The translations under genes were made by a program, and so were the position numbers. Positions 7,350 to 48,016 of a stretch of 64,000 nucleotides of DNA are shown here, one piece after another. The stretch lies in contig DASYXJ010000075.1 of the NCBI GenBank assembly GCA_035935095.1, positions 1 through 64,000 of the forward strand, written 5' to 3'. The notes beneath the pieces were generated by a model. That model saw only the letters and a list, made by a program, of their open reading frames with translations, had not been told where the DNA came from and searched no databases. Source of the stretch: Nitrososphaerales archaeon (lineage in GTDB: Archaea > Thermoproteota > Nitrososphaeria > Nitrososphaerales > Gagatemarchaeaceae). Every line of letters begins with the position of its first letter. Within the stretch, counting starts at the first letter, position 1.

Positions 7350-7888
7350 TGCCCGAGGGCTATGCCCTCTATTGCCTCTACCCTAAGCGACCACTTCTGC
7401 CTGATGTCTGCAACAGATTCTGCGAAGCCTCCCAATGCAGGCTGGATTGAATTCGGGGATGTGCTATCATAGCTAAGGCGCGAAGTTGCATCGTCCAGCT
7501 GGAATACTGTGCTGACGAAAGTGTAATCGTAATCGTAGAGCTTGTTGAGCTTGTCCTCGTTGACCTGTATTGGCGCCACCCAGCCCGCGTAACCTTGGGC
7601 CGCATGCCTTACCTCCCCGCTGAGCGCCTGAACCTGGGAGATCAGAGAGCCTATGCTTGTGAGGTTTGTCAGGTCTCCGGCTGTGGCCATCTGCTTCCTC
7701 ACCTGATCCAGGTTCCCTTTCACCTTGTCCAGCCTGTCCGCGACCTGGTTCCTTAGCAGCTCGTCCGAGACTCTGATGTCTTCCTTGCTTCTGTATCCTC
7801 TGAGGCCTGGAATGAGAAGCTGAAGTTTCTTCACTGCGCCTCTGTTGGCTTCTACCGTCTGCCTGATATCTGGGTTACCCTGAGACAA
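7346..7888 (-). CDS. hypothetical coiled-coil protein, first gene of SPFH/zinc-ribbon operon
   Basis: 4-nt overlap with the SPFH-like gene. Helical/coiled-coil N-terminus. Confidence 0.4.
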   Translation of the reverse strand: MSQGNPDIRQTVEANRGAVKKLQLLIPGLRGYRSKEDIRVSDELLRNQVADRLDKVKGNLDQVRKQMATAGDLTNLTSIGSLISQVQALSGEVRHAAQGYAGWVAPIQVNEDKLNKLYDYDYTFVSTVFQLDDATSRLSYDSTSPNSIQPALGGFAESVADIRQKWSLRVEAIEGIALGQ

Positions 7889-39299: not shown

Positions 39300-41327
39300 T
39301 CAGCTGGGCACGCTTACGGTGGACTCGCTCCCTGTCTTCTCCACCCTGAAGATCTGGTCTGCTAAGCTCTCCAGCTCCTTGTCGTGTGATACTATGATGA
39401 CCTGGGGGGAGCCGACTTCGTCCAGGACTTCCCTGACGTTTCCCAGCTGCTCCTTGCTGAACCCATCCGTTGGCTCGTCAAGTATCAGAAGGTTCGATTT
39501 CATGCCGACCGAAACCACCTGGGCCAAGATATTGAGCGAAAGGCGGTAGGCCAAGGCCATGCTCGTCCTTTCCCCACCGCTGAGATATCTCACGTCCTGC
39601 TCATACCCTCCTTCGGTCACGACGGGGGTGAAATCAGCATCGACGCTCACCTCCTTGTCCGGGTCGTTGACGAGCATCCCGAACCACCTCTTGAACAGCA
39701 AGTCAAAGTCCTGGTTGATGGTGGCTAGCACCGACTTCTCGATGGCCTTGAGCGTGGTCACAAAGTAATCTCTCAACCAGATCTCTTTTTCCTTTAGCTT
39801 CCTGCTCTTGTTCGACGCTTCCTCCTTCGCCATAATCTCGCTGGTGATTTGACTCCGTTGTTTCTTGACGGACTCGAGCCTCTCCTTCGCTCTGATTGTG
39901 TCCTCGCTTGCTTTCCTGAGAGCGTCTTCCGCCTGAGAAAGCCTCTTTTCCACAGTCCGCCTTATGTCAAACACTTCCTCCAGCTCCTCGAGCTCCTTCG
40001 CAAGCTGTTGCAGTTCGTTCCCAGCAAACGCTGAACGTTTTTCGAACTTCTTCCTTGACTTCTCTTTTCTCGCAACATCATTCTTCAACCTGGCGAGCTC
40101 TGACCTGAGCAATGCGAACTTTCTAATTCCTTCCCGATAGGCTTCCGCCTTCTCTCTCTTCTCCCTCAAGACACGAATTTCTGATTCAACCGACTCGAGT
40201 TCCTTGACTACGTGTTCACGTTCAGCCTCTTTCCTCGTCTTCCTTGCGTCGAAGTCATGCGCTTCTACGGGCCTATCGCAGACGGGGCACACCCTGCGCT
40301 TCATAATCGATTCGTAGTCCGCGAGCTTGGATTCGACGGCTCCCTTGAGGCCTGCCAACTTCCTCGCTTTTGATTCGAGGGAGCGTTCCATCCTCCTGAG
40401 CTCTGCGATGGGCTTTGACGTTGGAGGTTTCTCCCTCCGCGCCTCCTCAATGCTAGCCTTGACTTTGGCAAGCCTCTCCGTATAGTCGTCCACCTCTTCC
40501 TTCAAGTCGGCCGCGTCTCTTTCAGCTTCCAGCCTGACCCGCTCGTAGTTTTCTTTCTCTGACTTCGCCTTTTGAAGTGCCACCTCGGTTTTCTGGAATT
40601 TCTCCATCTCCTGTCTAAGCAGTCTTGCCTGTTCCTCGGCTTGCGAAGACGAAACTTCGAGCTGACCCAGCTCGGCCTTGCGGCTCTCTTCCTCCTGCTG
40701 CAGCCCACCGACTTGGCTCTTCAACTCGTCCATCCCCCTGGCAATCCCGTCCAGTTCTCTCGCATCTTCCCTGATCGCTCTGGTGGCGTCCTCAGCGTTG
40801 GTCGCGGCAGTCTTGTAGTCCTCCACCCTGAACGCCCGCCGAAGAATCTGGAGCCTCTGGTCGGGGACGAGGTTGAGTATGTACTTCATCTCCTCCTGGG
40901 GCGTGTAGACGGCATATCTGTAGATCCAGCTCAGGGCCTTGGGGTCGGGGGCCTCGTTGAACTCCAGGACCTCAAGCACTTTCTCCTTCAATTCACTCGG
41001 AGAAAGATCCAGCGTTTCCTCGGGCGTCTTCAGTTCGCCACCGGCCTGCTGGACCTTACCAGACTTCCTTTGCAGTCTCCTTCTTACTTCGTACTCAGAC
41101 CCGTCGACGTCGAAAACAAGCCTTACTTCCCCGTTGTCATGGCCGAGCTTGAGCACCGAGTTCCCAGAATCCGAACCCAGGCCGAAAAGTGCGAACTCGA
41201 TCGCCATAAGAACACTGGACTTGCCCGACCCTATGTCCCCCTCCAGTAGGGTCTTGCCTGCGGGGAACTTGATCAGTGAGTGTCCGTGACTCCTGACGTT
41301 CGTCATCTCGAGCTCCTTGATTATCAA
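39300..41327 (-). CDS. rad50: DNA double-strand break repair ATPase Rad50
   Basis: Walker A (GDIGSGKSSVLMAIEFALFG), long coiled coil with CPVC zinc hook, signature (LSGGERTSMALAYRLSL), Walker B (LILDEPTDGF). Confidence 0.9.
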   Translation of the reverse strand: MIIKELEMTNVRSHGHSLIKFPAGKTLLEGDIGSGKSSVLMAIEFALFGLGSDSGNSVLKLGHDNGEVRLVFDVDGSEYEVRRRLQRKSGKVQQAGGELKTPEETLDLSPSELKEKVLEVLEFNEAPDPKALSWIYRYAVYTPQEEMKYILNLVPDQRLQILRRAFRVEDYKTAATNAEDATRAIREDARELDGIARGMDELKSQVGGLQQEEESRKAELGQLEVSSSQAEEQARLLRQEMEKFQKTEVALQKAKSEKENYERVRLEAERDAADLKEEVDDYTERLAKVKASIEEARREKPPTSKPIAELRRMERSLESKARKLAGLKGAVESKLADYESIMKRRVCPVCDRPVEAHDFDARKTRKEAEREHVVKELESVESEIRVLREKREKAEAYREGIRKFALLRSELARLKNDVARKEKSRKKFEKRSAFAGNELQQLAKELEELEEVFDIRRTVEKRLSQAEDALRKASEDTIRAKERLESVKKQRSQITSEIMAKEEASNKSRKLKEKEIWLRDYFVTTLKAIEKSVLATINQDFDLLFKRWFGMLVNDPDKEVSVDADFTPVVTEGGYEQDVRYLSGGERTSMALAYRLSLNILAQVVSVGMKSNLLILDEPTDGFSKEQLGNVREVLDEVGSPQVIIVSHDKELESLADQIFRVEKTGSESTVSVPS

Positions 41328-42651
41328 GTCTTGTCCTCCCTCCCCAGAGCATTCGTGCCCTCCCTGACCATCCTTGTCGCATAGTCCCTCTTCGTCTCGC
41401 CGAGTTTCTGCGGTAGCCGCCAGAGCCCCAGAAGCTCCATCGCTCTCTCCGCCCCCTTTCGCCCGCGGAGATGGTCGGCCCCAGCGTTGAACTTGGCCGC
41501 CTCATCCTCGAAGAGCTTCCTTTCGATGAAGGCTGGTTCCTCGCCCGAAAAGACGGGGCCGGCCGTCTCCCTCGATTTCAGAGCATTCCTGTTCAGGTAA
41601 ACGTGAATCGCTCCTCGTTCGAAAAGGCTCGTCCTCATTCCTGCAAGCCCCACCTCCGACACGCTACCACCCGCCAGCTCGCCGTATACCTTGAGAACCA
41701 CGAGCTTCCCTGACACGTCTATTCCTTTCGCATCATCAGAAATCATCGACCCCGCCTCCGGCGCATTCCTCCCCGTCAGGTCGTATTCTCTGAAGACGCC
41801 TTCGAATGTATCCAGAGGGATGAAGTACTTCGCGTCGACGCGGGCGCCGAAATCGACCACGTAGAATCCTCGCCTCTCCCCCTTCGCAGTTGCCTCAAGG
41901 TCTCGCCCGTGGCCTGTGAACAGGGGTCCGGGAAAGACAATCTCGTCGAGCCCCGGGAGCCTAAACTCTCCCCTCTCGTGTATGTGTCCCCCCGCATAGT
42001 AGTCGAACCCTCTGGGGAGCAACGCGCTGTCCACCGTCTCCATATCGCCTAGGCTCCTGGGCATCAGCTCGGTGAGCCCGCTGTGGAAGGCGAAAATCTT
42101 GAACCCCTCTTCCTTCTCGAGCGACTTCTATCGAGGACGTCGAAATAGTGGCTCTCGAGCCCTATCTTCCGGGCCGATATGCCAGTTATCTTCGCTCCTG
42201 TCTTCTCATCAACGGTGAATCCGAGCCTGAGACTTTCGCCTTCGAAACTCGGCTTGAACACGTTGGTGAGCACGCCGGCAGTGTTCAGGATGTCTATGAC
42301 CGAGGTCCCGTTCGGCGTGTAGTCATGGCTTCCATAGATGGCATAGATAGGAATCCCGGCTTTCTGGACCTCCATCATGCTCTTGAGGGCAGAATTGACT
42401 ATTCCAAGGTCGGGGATTCCGACGTGGAACAGGTCCCCGCATACGAGGATGAAGTCCACGCTGAACTCCACGCACTTTCGCATGGCCAATTCGAACGTCT
42501 GCAACTCCAATTTCTGCAGGGCCGGTTCCCTATGGGCCCCGAGGTGTACATCTGCTAGGTGGGCGAATCTGGGCAACATCTCCGTCCACATTTGCGTCAG
42601 TTTAAGCATGCTTCGGCCGACATGACGCGACAGCGATTTGTCAGAAATCAT
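41324..42651 (-). CDS. mre11: DNA repair nuclease Mre11, interrupted by an apparent frameshift near 42064-42110 (ORFs 42064..42651 and 41324..42064)
   Basis: N-terminal ORF carries phosphoesterase motifs I-III (FAHLADVHLG, VCGDLFH, GSHD). The ORF starting at 42064 carries GGHIHE. Continuous reading requires a 1-nt frame change. Confidence 0.75.
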
Positions 42652-43088
42652 CTTCGTGGAAGCTTTGCAAGTCCCCGAGGGAGGGGTTTCCCCCTCCGCC
42701 GAGGATTCCGACGTGTGCCGGCCATAGTCCTCCTTCTGTTTTAGGCGGGATTCAGCTCAGCGGCCTACCCTGGTCTCCTGCAGGCGTTTCATCGACCACG
42801 TTTGGCCTTGCTCCGCACGGGTCAGCCGTTTCATCCCGGTCCCCACCGACCTCAAGGTCGCCCCATCATCGCATGATGGGCCGGGTCTCGTTTCTGTTCT
42901 GGAGCCGACCCTCTCGGGTCGCGTCTCTTGACGCCGTGCGTCCTGCTGCGAGGGAGGAACTTCCCCAGGAGATCCCCGTGGCCCGTCCACCGGCTCGCGT
43001 CGCACCCATGTGCCAGCGTTGACCAATTAACCGTTTCCTGATCCCGAAAGATAGAGTGCCTGACTAACCACTAGATCGACGGGAAGCT

Positions 43089-43625
43089 TCAGTTCGCCCG
43101 TTGGAAAGGGCCAACCTCGAAGACCTGAGGGAAGTACTCTCTCTCCGCCTTGAGCACTTTCCCCTCGGTCCTGGCGCGGCGATACTCCTCCAGCGGCTCT
43201 TCATTGAGTGTCAAAAAATTCGGACCCCATTTGTAAATCGAGAGATATCTCGTCGCTTCCTCGACCTCGCCCAGAATGTACATCGTGGCAGCAACTGCTT
43301 CCAGAGAGCTTAGCATCCCCGCCCTCGAGTAATTGGTCGGGTTCGCCGCCAGCAGGGTTGGGAGTCTCCTGTGTTTTCCGCCAAGCTTTCTGAAGAAGAC
43401 TTCCTGTGCCTGGTTCCATGAACAGTCTATTGCTAATACTGCCTTAGCCACTCTTTTGTCTGGAGGAGAAAGGACCCTGTGGGCCCAGGGGTTCAGGACG
43501 ATTATCTTGTCTGACGCGTGGAACTTCCTTCCGACGCCCCTGGCAAGGTCCATGTGGATCATCTTCCTCGCGGTGCATTTGGTCGGGTCATCTTGGCCCA
43601 TCTCGAGGGCGAAAACGCCTATCAT
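43089..43625 (-). CDS. tsr3: 16S/18S rRNA aminocarboxypropyltransferase Tsr3
   Basis: DDPTKCTARKM...AIDCSWNQ...HRRLPTLLAANPTNYSRAGMLSSLEAVAATMYILGEVEEA closely parallels archaeal Tsr3. Confidence 0.85.
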   Translation of the reverse strand: MIGVFALEMGQDDPTKCTARKMIHMDLARGVGRKFHASDKIIVLNPWAHRVLSPPDKRVAKAVLAIDCSWNQAQEVFFRKLGGKHRRLPTLLAANPTNYSRAGMLSSLEAVAATMYILGEVEEATRYLSIYKWGPNFLTLNEEPLEEYRRARTEGKVLKAEREYFPQVFEVGPFQRAN

Positions 43626-43663
43626 GAATCCTTAGCTCCTTTGCCGAGGCCATTTTGGCTCCC

Positions 43664-44353
43664 TTATCTACTGTCGGTTGTCTCTACTCGTCCTAGGCCC
43701 TTTACTCCGACGTAGCCCCGGCCTCCTCCTAGGACTTGCCTGATTGTTTCTCTGGCATACTGGGGATACTCTTTGACAAGGTCGCGCAAACGTTTGCCAT
43801 ATTCAAAATGACCCCTGCGTATGTCCTCGTAATCCTCCGGAGTCACCTTTGCTCTGAATTTACCGAAGGCATCTCTCAACTTGTCCTTTCGTCTTTCCTT
43901 CATGATTCTGTCACCCTCAGTCCGAGTGAATGGAACATTGATTGGAACCTTACGAGGCCTCCGCTCGCGACGTTCTGCTTCGACCTCTTCTTGGAAAACC
44001 GCAATTAGCCTGTTTCCGGTAATCTTGCCGTCATAATAGTCAAGGGCGGACCTTGCTTCATTTGCGTTCTTGCATAGGAATGGTAGCATCAATCTGAGCG
44101 CCTTCTTCACAGAATGGAATTCGCTAACGACCACGATGTTCGCTGTTCCCTTGGAGGTCTTCAGAATGTTGCTAGTCCTGATTCCATTATGATTGAGGAA
44201 GTCTCTGATGTTGGAAATCTGATAAAGTGACTGGTCAGTAAATATAAGCGACAGACTGAGTGTGTATGGCTGGTTTGAAATATCGGAAGTTGCGATTGAG
44301 CCGTCTCCGTCAAAGTAGCCGGCCACCTGACGCCGTGATGTGTACTGAGGCAC
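43664..44353 (-). CDS. free-standing single-motif LAGLIDADG homing endonuclease (I-CreI-like)
   Basis: VAGYFDGDGSI near the N-terminus. Downstream YTLSLSLIFTDQ and LRLMLPFL segments parallel I-CreI (HQLSLTFQVTQK, LTQLQPFL). Basic C-terminal extension. Confidence 0.8.
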   Translation of the reverse strand: MPQYTSRRQVAGYFDGDGSIATSDISNQPYTLSLSLIFTDQSLYQISNIRDFLNHNGIRTSNILKTSKGTANIVVVSEFHSVKKALRLMLPFLCKNANEARSALDYYDGKITGNRLIAVFQEEVEAERRERRPRKVPINVPFTRTEGDRIMKERRKDKLRDAFGKFRAKVTPEDYEDIRRGHFEYGKRLRDLVKEYPQYARETIRQVLGGGRGYVGVKGLGRVETTDSR

Positions 44354-44458
44354 AAGAGTATGATCGCTTGGATAATATAACCAGCAAGGGTTATTACTCC
44401 AACCTACTACTGCATCGCGGAGAGGTGGTGAGTTCGGCTATGCCGATGGCATTTCGTT

Positions 44459-44674
44459 TTGGTCAATGCTGACCTTGGAGCTGAAGAGGACCTCCTGAAG
44501 AAGCTCAGGGAGATTCAAAACGTCAAGGACGTCTATGTCGTCTACGGTGTCTATGACATCGTCGCCAGGGTAGAGGCCGACACCATGGAGAAGGTCAAGG
44601 AGACCATCACCTGGAACATACGCCGTCTCGACAAGGTGAGGAGCACCCTCACCATGATCGTCGTCGAAGCGTAG
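44459..44674 (+). CDS. stand-alone AsnC/Lrp-type RAM (ligand-binding) domain protein
   Basis: 71-aa beta-alpha-beta-beta-alpha-beta pattern (KDVYVVYGVYDIVARVEADTMEKV). Confidence 0.5.
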   Translation: MVNADLGAEEDLLKKLREIQNVKDVYVVYGVYDIVARVEADTMEKVKETITWNIRRLDKVRSTLTMIVVEA

Positions 44675-44721
44675 CCGGGCGTTTCCTCCCACGTTAAAAT
44701 AAGTCAGGGGCAGGAGACGAT

Positions 44722-45933
44722 ATGATGCACTGTCTCGTAGCCATCGACGACACAGATTCTTCCCGTGGGTGCTGTACGACCTACCTGGCGTACCGCATCG
44801 CGACAGACCTGCGCCCCGACGTCAGTGTAATTGCATACCCCAGGTTGGTGAGGCTAAACCCGAACATCCCGTTCAAGACCCGAGGCAATGCGGCCGTCTG
44901 CCTTCACATTGAGGCCTCGGATCCTGAGGTTGCATTCGAAAAGCTCGCAGCCAAGATAACAGAACTGTCCGATGTCGGCGGTGGGGCCAACTCAGGCATG
45001 GTCTTCGTCGAAGACTCCTCCAGGGCGAATAAGTTCGAGCCACTGTATCTCGAAGCTCTGACAGGGATAGTGAGCCCGCACAAGGTTAGACGATTCCTGC
45101 GAGAGCTGGGGACGAGAACGTTGGAGCTGGGAAACGGGATGGGGTTGGTCGGTGCGGCCAGTGCGCTGGGATTTGACGAGCGCTTCGACCACACGTACGA
45201 GTTGATCGCCTACCGAAAGAAGGAATTCTGGGGCACGCAGCGCGTCATTGACTCGTCCTCCGTGAGGGACATGGACTCCAAGATGTTCCCTCACACTTTC
45301 AACAACTATGATTACCAAAAACGGAAGGTACTGATCGCTCCACATGGGCCCGACCCAGTCTTCGCGGGCGTTCGAGGAGATTCACCAAATGCGGTGATCA
45401 AGGCATTCAACATCCTCGTTTACGACGAGACCATCGACGGCCGGATGGTCTACATCTCTAACCAGCACACGGACGCTCACCTGAAACGAGAGCTGAACTG
45501 GAAGGTCTACTCGTCTGGGTGGGTCGAGGGAACTGTGACCGAAGTCCGCGTGGGAGCCGGAGGCCACGTGTACCTTACCATCGATGCCGACGGACGCAAG
45601 CGCTTCGCCGCAGCCTACGAGCCGACCGGAGACCTGCGGAGGACAGCTCGGCTCCTAAAGTCCGGAGACAAAGTCAAGGCCTACGGCGGGGTTCGCAGAG
45701 CCACTTCCCTACACCCGAAGATGCTCAATCTGGAGAAGTTCGAGGTCATTTCATCGGCCAGAAGAGGGACCTCTATCCCCAAAGGGACATACATCTCGTC
45801 GCCTCGGGCAAACAGGCACTTGACGAAACCATTGATCAGATACGGCCTTGAGAACCACGAGAAGGAACAGGCCGTCGACGACTGGTTAGATTCAGCACCT
45901 AGATTGCCGACAGTGCCTGCGAGAAGTCGCTGA
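44722..45933 (+). CDS. tiaS: tRNA(Ile2) 2-agmatinylcytidine synthetase TiaS
   Basis: IDDTDSSRGCCTTYLA, YPRLVRLNPNIPFKTRGNAAV, ELIAYR, NQHTDAHL, GGHVY, LNLEKFEVI, RHLTKPLIR all parallel characterised TiaS. No C-terminal zinc ribbon. Confidence 0.9.
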   Translation: MMHCLVAIDDTDSSRGCCTTYLAYRIATDLRPDVSVIAYPRLVRLNPNIPFKTRGNAAVCLHIEASDPEVAFEKLAAKITELSDVGGGANSGMVFVEDSSRANKFEPLYLEALTGIVSPHKVRRFLRELGTRTLELGNGMGLVGAASALGFDERFDHTYELIAYRKKEFWGTQRVIDSSSVRDMDSKMFPHTFNNYDYQKRKVLIAPHGPDPVFAGVRGDSPNAVIKAFNILVYDETIDGRMVYISNQHTDAHLKRELNWKVYSSGWVEGTVTEVRVGAGGHVYLTIDADGRKRFAAAYEPTGDLRRTARLLKSGDKVKAYGGVRRATSLHPKMLNLEKFEVISSARRGTSIPKGTYISSPRANRHLTKPLIRYGLENHEKEQAVDDWLDSAPRLPTVPARSR

Positions 45934-47065
45934 CCAAGTCCTCGACATCCTCTATCCCGATTGAAACCCTTACCAGGGTATCGGGAATCCCGGTCTTCTC
46001 CCTAGCCTTCGCAGACATCTGGGTGTGAGTCATGTTGTATGGCTGCGAGACGAGGGTCCCGATTCCGCCAAGACTCGCTGCGAGGCTCGCAATCTTCAAC
46101 GACTCGGTGAACTTCATCGCGTCCTTTGTGGACCCTTTGATTTCGATGCTCATCATCCCCCCGAAACCCCTCATCTGTTTCTTAGCCAGTGCGTGTTGTG
46201 GGTGAGTTTTCAGTCCGGGATAGTGCACCTGCGAGACTTTCCTGTGTTTGGAGAGGAACTCGGCAATGGCCATAGCGTTCGAGTTCTGCTGCCTGACCCT
46301 TATTGCCATGGTCTTCATTCCCCTGAGCACGAGCCAGGCGGGGAGAGGGTCGAGAGTTCCGCCGAAGTCTCTCCTCATCATCTTGATTGCATGCGCCTTC
46401 TTCTTGTTGGTCACCGCGGCACCGGCTATTAGGTCTGAGTGCCCGTTGAGGTATTTTGTAGCACTGTGAAGCACTACGTCGGCCCCAAGCTCTAGCGGGT
46501 TCTGATTGATGGGAGAAGCGAACGTGTTGTCCACCATCAAGATTGCGCCTCCCTGGTGGGCGAGCTTTGCCACCTTCGCTAGGTCGACGAGCTTCAGAGT
46601 GGGGTTGGTCGGCGACTCCACATAGACGATTCGCGTGTTCTTCCTGATTCCTCTTTCCATCGCCCCGAGGTCGGTCGTCTCCACGAGGTTTGTTGCAAAT
46701 CCCAAGTCCGGCAGAATATCGTGAATGAGGGAGTAGGCTCCCCCATAGAGGTCGCGGATGCCCAGGACGAGCATACCTTTCTTGAGGAACGAGAAGACCG
46801 AAGTCGAAATCGCAGCCATCCCCGACGAAAACGCGGCTGCATCCCCTCCATGCTCCAAGGCAGCGAGCTTCCTCTCTAGGGTGACGACCGTGGGGTTGTC
46901 CCATCTCGAATAGACATACCCCTGCTTCCCAGAGACCGCCACGGGAACCTCTTCTGCCTTGGTAAACCCAAAGGTCGCTGTTTCATAGATTGGCGTGTTG
47001 ATGGAGCCGGTCGCTTCGTCAAAGGGTTCTGCTTCGTGGACCGACCTGGTAGAATCCCCTGCCAA
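45899..47065 (-). CDS. PLP-dependent Cys/Met metabolism enzyme (cystathionine gamma-synthase/lyase or O-acetylhomoserine sulfhydrylase family)
   Basis: Fold-type I pattern with the Lys in SATKYLNGHSDLIAGA. ~388 aa. Confidence 0.85.
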   Translation of the reverse strand: MAGDSTRSVHEAEPFDEATGSINTPIYETATFGFTKAEEVPVAVSGKQGYVYSRWDNPTVVTLERKLAALEHGGDAAAFSSGMAAISTSVFSFLKKGMLVLGIRDLYGGAYSLIHDILPDLGFATNLVETTDLGAMERGIRKNTRIVYVESPTNPTLKLVDLAKVAKLAHQGGAILMVDNTFASPINQNPLELGADVVLHSATKYLNGHSDLIAGAAVTNKKKAHAIKMMRRDFGGTLDPLPAWLVLRGMKTMAIRVRQQNSNAMAIAEFLSKHRKVSQVHYPGLKTHPQHALAKKQMRGFGGMMSIEIKGSTKDAMKFTESLKIASLAASLGGIGTLVSQPYNMTHTQMSAKAREKTGIPDTLVRVSIGIEDVEDLVSDFSQALSAI

Positions 47066-47137: not shown

Positions 47138-47944
47138 TCATGGTATCGCACGGATATCGTATGTTTGAATAACTTCTGAAGAGTCTGAATAGACGACGAC
47201 CACATAGACTTTGAATGCTCCCCCGACCATGACGGGCCGCTGTTGAGTGCTTCCATTGAAAGTTTGACCGAGATCAAGAGGTTGAGCGTGGGCGGTTTGC
47301 TGGACATAGCCTCCTGCACAAAGAAACGGGAAGAATGCTAGAAGCGACGTGCCGTTCCATAGCTCCGCATAAATGAACTGGATGGACTTCGCATCCGCAT
47401 TTGAAACCGTGAGACTCCAATCGGAGAAGTTTCTCTGAAATTCGTTGTTGTAAACTGCGGCCCTCAGCGTGCTGGAGGCCGAGAACTGCCCGGAAAACTG
47501 TGTTTGAGTTGAGTTGCTGAAGGTCAAGGGATAGTCGGACGAGGATATCCCAGATGAGTTCATTATGATTATCGAAACCTGGTAGGTGAAAGTTTTCAAA
47601 AATGGAATACTCATGCATGTGTTGACGGTGTTCTCCTGACCGGGTTGCAATCTTGATGAGTTCCCATAGGCAATGTTGTCGTTCGTGCGGATCAAGTAAT
47701 TGACATAGGCTGTGGCGTTTCCCGAATTCCTCATCCGCAATTCCCAGATTCCAATCGAATAATTGAAGCCAGGAAGTTTGATTAGGACAATTCTGTTCGA
47801 TTCAACTGCGAATCCGTGCCTCCCGGTTCTTCCAGCCTGAGGGAGATAATAGACAAGATAGGTCCCTACCGCTGCACCAATAATCACGATCACCAGCGAG
47901 ACCGCGATAACTTTGGTTCTGTGGCGTGGGGCTGCTTCGCTCAT
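47138..47944 (-). CDS. N-terminally anchored extracellular protein, many N-glycosylation sequons
   Basis: TM anchor then an Asn/Ser/Thr-rich beta region. AT-richer than neighbours. Confidence 0.45.
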   Translation of the reverse strand: MSEAAPRHRTKVIAVSLVIVIIGAAVGTYLVYYLPQAGRTGRHGFAVESNRIVLIKLPGFNYSIGIWELRMRNSGNATAYVNYLIRTNDNIAYGNSSRLQPGQENTVNTCMSIPFLKTFTYQVSIIIMNSSGISSSDYPLTFSNSTQTQFSGQFSASSTLRAAVYNNEFQRNFSDWSLTVSNADAKSIQFIYAELWNGTSLLAFFPFLCAGGYVQQTAHAQPLDLGQTFNGSTQQRPVMVGGAFKVYVVVVYSDSSEVIQTYDIRAIP

Positions 47945-48016
47945 CGACTTGGTTTGCCTGTCAAGCAGTGTATGAGTCTATCGTATCTTGATAAGCAACC
48001 CGGGAGATTACGCACC

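Follow-up and report, generated by a model that had tools for sequence, protein, structure and literature searches.

A Nitrososphaerales family of free-standing LAGLIDADG genes with a tethered helix-turn-helix domain, probably homing endonucleases in a cycle of gain, decay and loss

What is a LAGLIDADG gene doing on its own between conserved genes of an archaeal chromosome? The question is raised by a 229-codon open reading frame (ORF) just upstream of tsr3 in a 64,000-nucleotide stretch of Nitrososphaerales DNA (contig DASYXJ010000075.1; the whole stretch is called the window below). A preliminary description of the locus had taken the ORF for a free-standing, I-CreI-like LAGLIDADG gene that may have moved recently, and that could be either a selfish element aimed at the tsr3 region or a domesticated DNA-binding protein. 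Our analysis makes it likely that the ORF belongs to a Nitrososphaerales family of free-standing LAGLIDADG homing endonuclease genes passing through gain, decay and loss.

Domain architecture and active site

The family is small. We found 217 homologs at E ≤ 1e-3, the best 120 of which are full-length and 60–100% identical, and 182 matches at the same threshold among 1.84 billion cluster representatives. All named homologs are proteins of Nitrososphaerales or Thaumarchaeota metagenome-assembled genomes (MAGs), nearly all annotated as "hypothetical", and one of these (P0001, a hypothetical protein of a Nitrososphaerales MAG at NCBI) is 100% identical to the window protein. The parts of the gene are as follows.

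43664–44353, minus strand: complete, free-standing LAGLIDADG-HTH ORF (HTH, helix-turn-helix) of 229 amino acids with a GTG start
43979–44353, minus strand: LAGLIDADG core, defined by AlphaFold2 secondary structure, with predicted local distance difference test (pLDDT) scores mostly above 90; Foldseek 1.00 to I-CreI, I-MsoI and I-Vdi141I, hhalign 89%
44294–44326, minus strand: LAGLIDADG motif VAGYFDGDGSI, residues 10–20
44066–44068, minus strand: codon 96, AAC (Asn), which aligns with the catalytic K98 of I-CreI (K96N)
43862–43978, minus strand: basic linker EAERRERRPRKVPINVPF..., then a helix, amino acids 126–164, with a highly conserved EVEAGRRER block
43694–43861, minus strand: C-terminal three-helix, homeodomain-like HTH, amino acids ~165–220, core GKRLRDLVKEYPQYARETIRQVLG
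43736–43738, minus strand: codon of R206Q, a change unique to the window copy, in the third helix of the HTH

An AlphaFold2 model built from 35 orthologs (mean pLDDT 83.6) was matched by Foldseek to I-CreI and its relatives I-MsoI, I-CvuI and the archaeal I-Vdi141I with a probability of 1.00 (E 2e-7), and hhalign of the family profile against I-CreI gave a probability of 89%, bearing out the earlier assignment to this group. At the level of sequence the likeness is distant: identity to I-CreI-type enzymes is only 16–22%, and the best matches in the PDB are I-MsoI (E 7e-4) and I-CreI (E 0.1). The GYFDGDG core of the motif is invariant among the 35 aligned orthologs, and the presence of a single motif implies a homodimer.

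Catalytic residues were mapped onto I-CreI by profile alignment, without structural superposition, and their conservation was scored over 118 full-length orthologs.

Metal-binding D20 of I-CreI, family D17: kept in 117 of 118
Q47 of I-CreI, family Q45: kept in all 118
Catalytic K98 of I-CreI, family position 96: Lys in 117 of 118, the sole exception being the window copy

The ~100 amino acids after the core had been described as a basic C-terminal extension. They are indeed basic (RRERRPRK...), but they amount to more than an extension, comprising the conserved linker and the HTH domain. The best structural neighbours of the predicted three-helix bundle are DNA-binding HTH domains; Pfam run on the C-terminal 103 amino acids alone found nothing, while paralogs of the family return repeated sub-threshold Pfam matches to HTH_38, HTH_23, HTH_7 and DUF433 at this position. 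The HTH is thus a predicted domain, assigned from its fold and these sub-threshold paralog matches. Constraint among the 35 orthologs spans the whole length of the protein, including EVEAGRRER, RDAFGRFRAKVTPEDF and GKRLxDLxxEYPQYARETIRRVLG.

The gene stands outside the intron- and intein-encoded class, as the preliminary description had proposed. The window contains no tRNA genes, and no rRNA or tRNA gene could host the ORF; a permissive Rfam scan of 42600–44800 (E up to 1) returned no intron RNA model, only the RNase P RNA and one noise match. An intein host is likewise absent, because the LAGLIDADG helix comes right at the beginning of the ORF, and intergenic DNA lies on both sides.

Allele states and histories at a fixed intergenic site

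The ORF lies between two divergent genes, in a position that recurs among relatives.

43626–43663, minus strand: 38-nt spacer from the ORF stop codon to the tsr3 start codon
43089–43625, minus strand: tsr3, 16S rRNA aminocarboxypropyltransferase family (PF04034, E 3e-40; NCBIfam PRK02287, 190 bits)
44354–44458: putative divergent promoter spacer separating the LAGLIDADG and AsnC/RAM-domain genes
44459–44674, plus strand: stand-alone AsnC/Lrp ligand-binding (RAM) domain gene (PF01037, E 8e-13)
~43700–44450, minus strand: putatively exchanged cassette of ~750 bp, made up of the promoter spacer and the whole ORF, delimited in 40-nt bins of window versus L002

In species-representative genomes we identified 15 orthologous loci, together with paralogs at 26–42% identity, some of them resident in the same genome as an ortholog. 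The usual gene order is a cystathionine-gamma-synthase-like gene (CGS), TiaS, the AsnC-domain gene, the LAGLIDADG gene, tsr3, RNase P RNA, Mre11 and Rad50. The position of the ORF 38 nt upstream of tsr3 on the same strand, as first described, is correct for the window, but tsr3 is not the constant partner: the AsnC-domain gene is the divergent neighbour, ~100 bp away, in every orthologous locus, and four loci (L009–L011, L014) keep it with neither tsr3 nor TiaS nearby. Because the AsnC-domain gene and not tsr3 is the invariant neighbour, gene order suggests that the target, if there is one, lies more likely on the AsnC-domain side.

Distant lineages (L049–L061), whose tsr3 is only 32–47% identical, have tsr3 and the AsnC-domain gene as direct divergent neighbours, separated by 85–200 bp that contain no LAGLIDADG gene. 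The ORF is therefore an insertion into what was ancestrally a divergent pair of tsr3 and the AsnC/RAM-domain gene.

A metagenome scan centred on the AsnC-domain gene gathered 80 loci. Within the close clade, defined by an AsnC-domain protein at least 92% identical and comprising 28 distinct loci, the gene was found in every condition from intact to deleted.

Intact, 13 loci: the window, L001, L003–L008, L031, L032, L034, L038 and L040
Open but cut by a contig end, 2 loci: L013 and L037
Pseudogene, 5 loci: L002 (in-frame stop at codon 72), L015 (frameshift near codon 147), L033 (at least 2 frameshifts, three stops), L039 (frameshift) and L065 (frameshift and stop)
Deleted, 6 loci: L027 (only a frameshifted 3' remnant; by its flanks the closest relative of the window), L028 (29-codon 5' stub, motif mutated to DGGG), L030 (no recognisable remnant; ambiguous), and L035, L036 and L041 (last codons only: TDTTIRE, TDSR* and TDITIKDS*, respectively)

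The stop in L002 occurs in both a genome record and a metagenome record, the gene DNA of L029 being identical. L035, L036 and L041 are secondary deletions: they keep the terminal codons of the ORF, and the deep lineages without the gene lack the corresponding element (ACCGACA...ATAAGG) in front of tsr3. A single deletion seems to underlie both L035 and L036, with L041 independent. Presence and absence are thus polymorphic at one fixed site between tsr3 and the AsnC-domain gene among close relatives. The earlier proposal that an old domesticated gene would be conserved throughout the lineage with host-like composition does not describe this family, which ranges in close relatives from present to broken to deleted and whose AT content exceeds that of the neighbouring genes at all loci examined.

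Intact copies are under purifying selection, with a ratio of nonsynonymous to synonymous substitution rates (dN/dS) of 0.076 for window versus L001 and a median of ~0.13 where dS is measurable. Their relationships do not follow those of the flanking genes. Spearman correlations of LAGLIDADG identity with flank identity are 0.43 for tsr3, 0.20 for TiaS and 0.05 for CGS, as against 0.86 between tsr3 and TiaS. Divergence at 4-fold sites differs from pair to pair.

Window versus L001: LAGLIDADG gene 0.37; tsr3 0.46, TiaS 0.45
Window versus L002: LAGLIDADG gene 0.64; tsr3 0.35, AsnC-domain gene 0.25
L007 versus L038: LAGLIDADG gene 0.65; TiaS 0.47, AsnC-domain gene 0.31

Fisher tests gave p = 2.7e-5 for window versus L002, p = 0.009 for L007 versus L038 and p = 0.003–0.006 for three further pairs; these are distance and synonymous-site tests of incongruence, short of a full likelihood topology test. 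For the window and L001 the values fit an inheritance of gene and flanks together. Between the window and L002 the cassette is 45–78% identical and the flanks 78–98%, with breakpoints at the cassette edges. Because allele history is uncoupled from that of the flanks and the breakpoints fall at these edges, the cassette has, as far as can be read from sequence comparison, been exchanged among lineages at a fixed site.

As first described, the window's own copy is AT-richer than its surroundings: the ORF has a GC content of 0.487 and a GC content at third codon positions (GC3) of 0.526, compared with 0.55 GC for the window overall and GC3 of 0.68–0.79 in neighbouring genes, and the low-GC tract is limited to the ~750-bp cassette. 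The gene had been described as perhaps recently mobile, but it is not a recent arrival in this genome. Low GC3 is common to all orthologs and paralogs, and is a family trait rather than a sign of recent arrival, and the copy is best read as having passed down vertically together with its flanks from the time when the L001 lineage split off. It deviates from the family at six columns that are at least 90% conserved (family median three), and it may be inactive or catalytically impaired through K96N. Still an intact ORF, with K96N and R206Q it may stand at the start of its decay phase, and it deserves to be flagged as a probable catalytic-site variant.

One MAG, TA_8 (VBPK01), holds two contigs of the locus (L010 and L011) on which the AsnC-domain proteins are 100% identical and the LAGLIDADG alleles only 62%; the bin may be a mixture of strains, or the locus may be duplicated.

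Homing and its alternatives

We propose the following course of events. The protein would act as an I-CreI-like homodimer, in which two LAGLIDADG cores form two active sites (D17, Q45 and K96) and bind a roughly palindromic central site, while the basic linker and homeodomain-like HTH of each subunit would reach the flanking DNA and so lengthen the recognised site. The ~750-bp cassette, with its own promoter spacer, lies in a gap bounded by tsr3 and the AsnC/RAM-domain promoter, where neither host gene is disrupted. It would be exchanged between lineages at the same site, most simply by gene conversion induced by a double-strand break, would then decay by point mutation and frameshift, and would finally be deleted. 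We infer dimerisation, cleavage, a target sequence and transfer by homing; the conserved active site, the fixed intergenic site, the mixed allele states, the purifying selection, the uncoupled history and the diversified paralogs are the reasons for which the pattern matches the published life cycle of homing endonuclease genes, as well as the rule by which those that stand free occupy intergenic positions (PMC13619312).

Several points weigh against this reading. Intact is the commonest state of the gene and is strongly constrained, as a function beneficial to the host would also bring about. No clearly naive empty site was found among the 28 loci of the close clade; L035, L036 and L041 were considered as such sites and rejected as secondary deletions. 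The comparison with related genomes suggested at the outset yielded absence in distant lineages and in some relatives, but no such allele in the close clade, and reconstruction of the target site failed because the close clade offers no unambiguous naive allele and the spacers of the deep lineages are too diverged. Some of the frameshifts are possibly metagenome assembly errors, and the window copy, with K96N, may be inactive. The Pfam scores of the window protein are sub-threshold, at 18.6 bits over residues 11–108 for LAGLIDADG_1 (curated threshold 23.1, E 0.0037) and 14.4 bits for LAGLIDADG_3 (threshold 22.5); no NCBIfam model matches the window protein, the family passes no Pfam or NCBIfam model, and a precomputed PF00961 match exists on two orthologs. 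The low score reflects a sequence too divergent for the Pfam model, fold and motif being in agreement. Synonymous sites saturate more easily in a low-GC3 gene than in codon-biased flanks, which inflates some comparisons, with the window–L001 pair serving as a control. Incongruence could also stem from ordinary homologous recombination between lineages, with no endonuclease involved.

The constraint along the full length of the protein, including the HTH, and the constant divergent placement ~100 bp from the AsnC-domain gene, with a shared promoter region, would suit a domesticated DNA-binding regulator that binds the divergent promoter and controls tsr3, the AsnC/RAM-domain gene, both or itself, with no role as a mobile endonuclease. 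There are two parallels: WhiA (DUF199), universal in Gram-positive bacteria, is a LAGLIDADG transcription factor with a C-terminal HTH, and I-TevI is a homing endonuclease that doubles as a repressor (PMC3384342). We nevertheless regard this explanation as unlikely. WhiA has lost its catalytic residues (PMC3384342), whereas the Asp, Gln and Lys equivalents are nearly invariant here; in the close clade the gene has been lost from about 40% of loci through independent mutations or deletions; allele history is uncoupled from the flanks; the AsnC-domain/tsr3 pair is widespread without the LAGLIDADG gene; and paralogs occur at unrelated loci. Of the two outcomes proposed at the outset, selfish element and domesticated protein, the former thus fits much better, with the qualification that its constant neighbour is the AsnC/RAM-domain gene. 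A secondary autoregulatory role at the shared promoter is possible.

The gene might also be an ordinary, dispensable host gene, inherited vertically at uneven rates and often lost, the incongruence then being a product of rate variation and occasional generic recombination. Its identical position in all orthologous loci, the star-like allele identities of ~55–70% and a low codon bias that could speed synonymous saturation are all in keeping with this, but we consider it improbable. From the window, tsr3 is less diverged at 4-fold sites in L002 (0.35) than in L001 (0.46), yet the LAGLIDADG gene is more so (0.64 versus 0.37), and synonymous rates should not differ in this way. The sharp breakpoints at the cassette edges, the 62%-identical alleles beside identical AsnC-domain proteins in one MAG, and a fold and active site of homing endonuclease type also count against it.

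That the ORF was carried in by a larger mobile element such as an integrated virus or plasmid, for which GC below the surroundings and the abundance of LAGLIDADG genes in phages, including an archaeal tailed virus, might speak, is scarcely credible and was rejected on the IMG/VR and BFVD results, since IMG/VR holds only 2 distant viral matches (28–35% identity over the N-terminal domain) and BFVD only generic phage LAGLIDADG proteins with no evident HTH-bearing counterpart, while the low-GC tract is no longer than the ~750-bp cassette, conserved housekeeping genes in conserved order lie on both sides, and no integrase, repeats or tRNA are found nearby.

Paralogs, known systems and surroundings of the locus

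The paralogs have the same two-domain architecture and are likewise free-standing between housekeeping genes, with each subgroup at its own site.

L017 and L018: upstream of proteasome alpha
L016 and L021: beside sucD/sucC
L023 and L026: between 2-oxoacid dehydrogenase E2 and E1beta
L020 and L025: at enolase / rpS2
L019: between aRF1 and a GTPase gene
L015, 7758–8324: second LAGLIDADG-HTH copy, upstream of Mre11

The residues of beta1–beta2 differ between paralogs and orthologs, differences that a changed DNA specificity would be expected to require. On a broader proposition, to which we give somewhat less than an even chance, the free-standing LAGLIDADG-HTH proteins of uncultivated soil Nitrososphaerales are active homing endonucleases that form a radiating family, in which every subgroup homes to an intergenic housekeeping site of its own. 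If it is true, cells of different lineages in soil Nitrososphaerales regularly exchange and recombine their chromosomal DNA, and the I-CreI-like dimer with two tethered HTH domains and an extended target represents a natural nuclease architecture of a new kind. Provided that the proteins are active, exchange of the alleles would serve as an intrinsic marker for gene flow and for homologous recombination in uncultivated soil Thaumarchaeota, where these are otherwise hard to observe. The paralogs at other housekeeping sites offer a natural experiment on how a homing endonuclease might switch targets, the combination of LAGLIDADG dimer and HTH could serve as a scaffold for long-site nucleases, and the "hypothetical proteins" of the family can now be given a name.

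Two members of the wider family are of unusual form. The paralog at 7758–8324 in L015 is 33% identical and lies in a ~3-kb insertion between tsr3 and Mre11, in a locus whose orthologous copy is frameshifted. P0145, an 882-amino-acid protein from a JGI metagenome, carries the LAGLIDADG-HTH unit at residues 677–877 behind 676 N-terminal amino acids without a Pfam match; gene fusion, read-through or a host protein not yet recognised could account for it.

Among known enzymes the closest are I-CreI, I-MsoI, I-CvuI and I-Vdi141I, which share with the window family the single motif, the core fold and the D20, Q47 and K98 equivalents. They act as homodimers on a pseudo-palindromic site, the mode that the model implies for the window family too. 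These enzymes are found inside group I or archaeal rRNA introns and have no counterpart of the ~100-amino-acid linker and HTH, whereas the window gene is free-standing and intergenic on an archaeal chromosome. The archaeal LAGLIDADG enzymes characterised to date are, so far as is known, encoded in introns or inteins. In their genomic setting the nearest parallels are the seg and mob genes of T4-like phages, which also stand alone between conserved genes, are patchy among relatives and tether a nuclease to a small HTH-type module. The free-standing homing endonucleases of these phages are mostly GIY-YIG or HNH enzymes that spread during co-infection; the window family is LAGLIDADG and resides on cellular archaeal chromosomes.

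The allele dynamics have their precedent in yeast omega (I-SceI) and VDE (PI-SceI) and in the model of Goddard and Burt, with functional, degenerate and absent states and incongruence between gene and host (PMC13619312). The window family shares with omega and VDE both the mixed allele states among close relatives and the incongruence, but those elements are sheltered by a self-splicing intron or an intein in a conserved gene, while the window cassette is intergenic and, unlike them, is lost by imprecise deletions that leave remnants. With respect to WhiA, the window family has a single LAGLIDADG domain, keeps its catalytic residues, is polymorphic and is often lost. LAGLIDADG genes encoded in archaeal group I introns have been reported (PMC6125680), and full-text literature searches returned no description of a thaumarchaeal free-standing LAGLIDADG family, nor of a chromosomal one with a tethered HTH and a record of gain, decay and loss. 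What is new here is the type, free-standing, chromosomal, archaeal and HTH-tethered; LAGLIDADG homing endonucleases as a class are already known.

Further features of the locus concern its control regions and neighbouring genes.

44383–44397, plus strand: conserved motif AGCAAGGGTTATTAC in the divergent spacer, reading GTAATAACCnTTGCT on the minus strand
44377–44394: inverted repeat ATAACC-N6-GGTTAT in the promoter spacer
43662–43678, minus strand: 3'-terminal element ACCGACAGTAGATAAGG, overlapping the ORF stop codon
42713–42998, minus strand: archaeal RNase P RNA gene (Rfam RF00373, 187.8 bits), directly downstream of tsr3
45899–47065: CGS, on the TiaS-adjacent side of the locus

The spacer motif AGCAAGGGTTATTAC is kept in occupied and deleted alleles alike, and deep lineages carry an equivalent TTAAATAGG element. 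A TATA-like TTATATTA lies ~27 nt upstream of the GTG start of the LAGLIDADG gene, a spacing that suggests a leaderless mRNA. The inverted repeat was considered as an operator or target and set aside, its arms being only 6 nt long and the second arm not conserved in other loci. Element ACCGACAGTAGATAAGG survives in deletion alleles, with different frames in short-tail and long-tail variants, and probably serves as the present-day tsr3 promoter.

The stand-alone RAM-domain protein is 71–75 amino acids long, with 92–100% amino acid identity in the close clade and 59–85% in distant lineages. Across very divergent Thaumarchaeota its gene is divergent to tsr3 and has TiaS on the other side, which hints at a functional link. 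That it might form a split Lrp-like regulator with the LAGLIDADG gene was considered and rejected, as the RAM-domain gene is widely conserved without it and the LAGLIDADG gene has paralogs elsewhere. At the 5' end of the RAM-domain gene (44440–44461, plus strand) the window and L001 have a common 1-nt difference, GGCATTTCG as against GGCCTTCG in L002. The upstream ATG is thereby out of frame in the window and L001, and translation must therefore start at the TTG at 44459 (GTG in L001); L003 and L007 have no ATG at this position (ATC/ATT), which suggests an unusual or variable start.

On the far side of tsr3, the RNase P RNA DNA is 95–99% identical among relatives whose flanking genes are only 45–85% identical. 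Mre11 (41324–42651, minus strand) is frameshifted in the window into two ORFs, 42064–42651 and 41324–42064, where L001, L002 and L008 have a single open frame of ~420–440 codons; either the gene is a genuine pseudogene or the source contig is misassembled there. A second low-GC stretch (0.46–0.50 at 47200–48000) coincides with a 268-amino-acid ORF at 47138–47944 (minus strand), whose Asn-, Ser- and Thr-rich product has a hydrophobic N-terminal segment.

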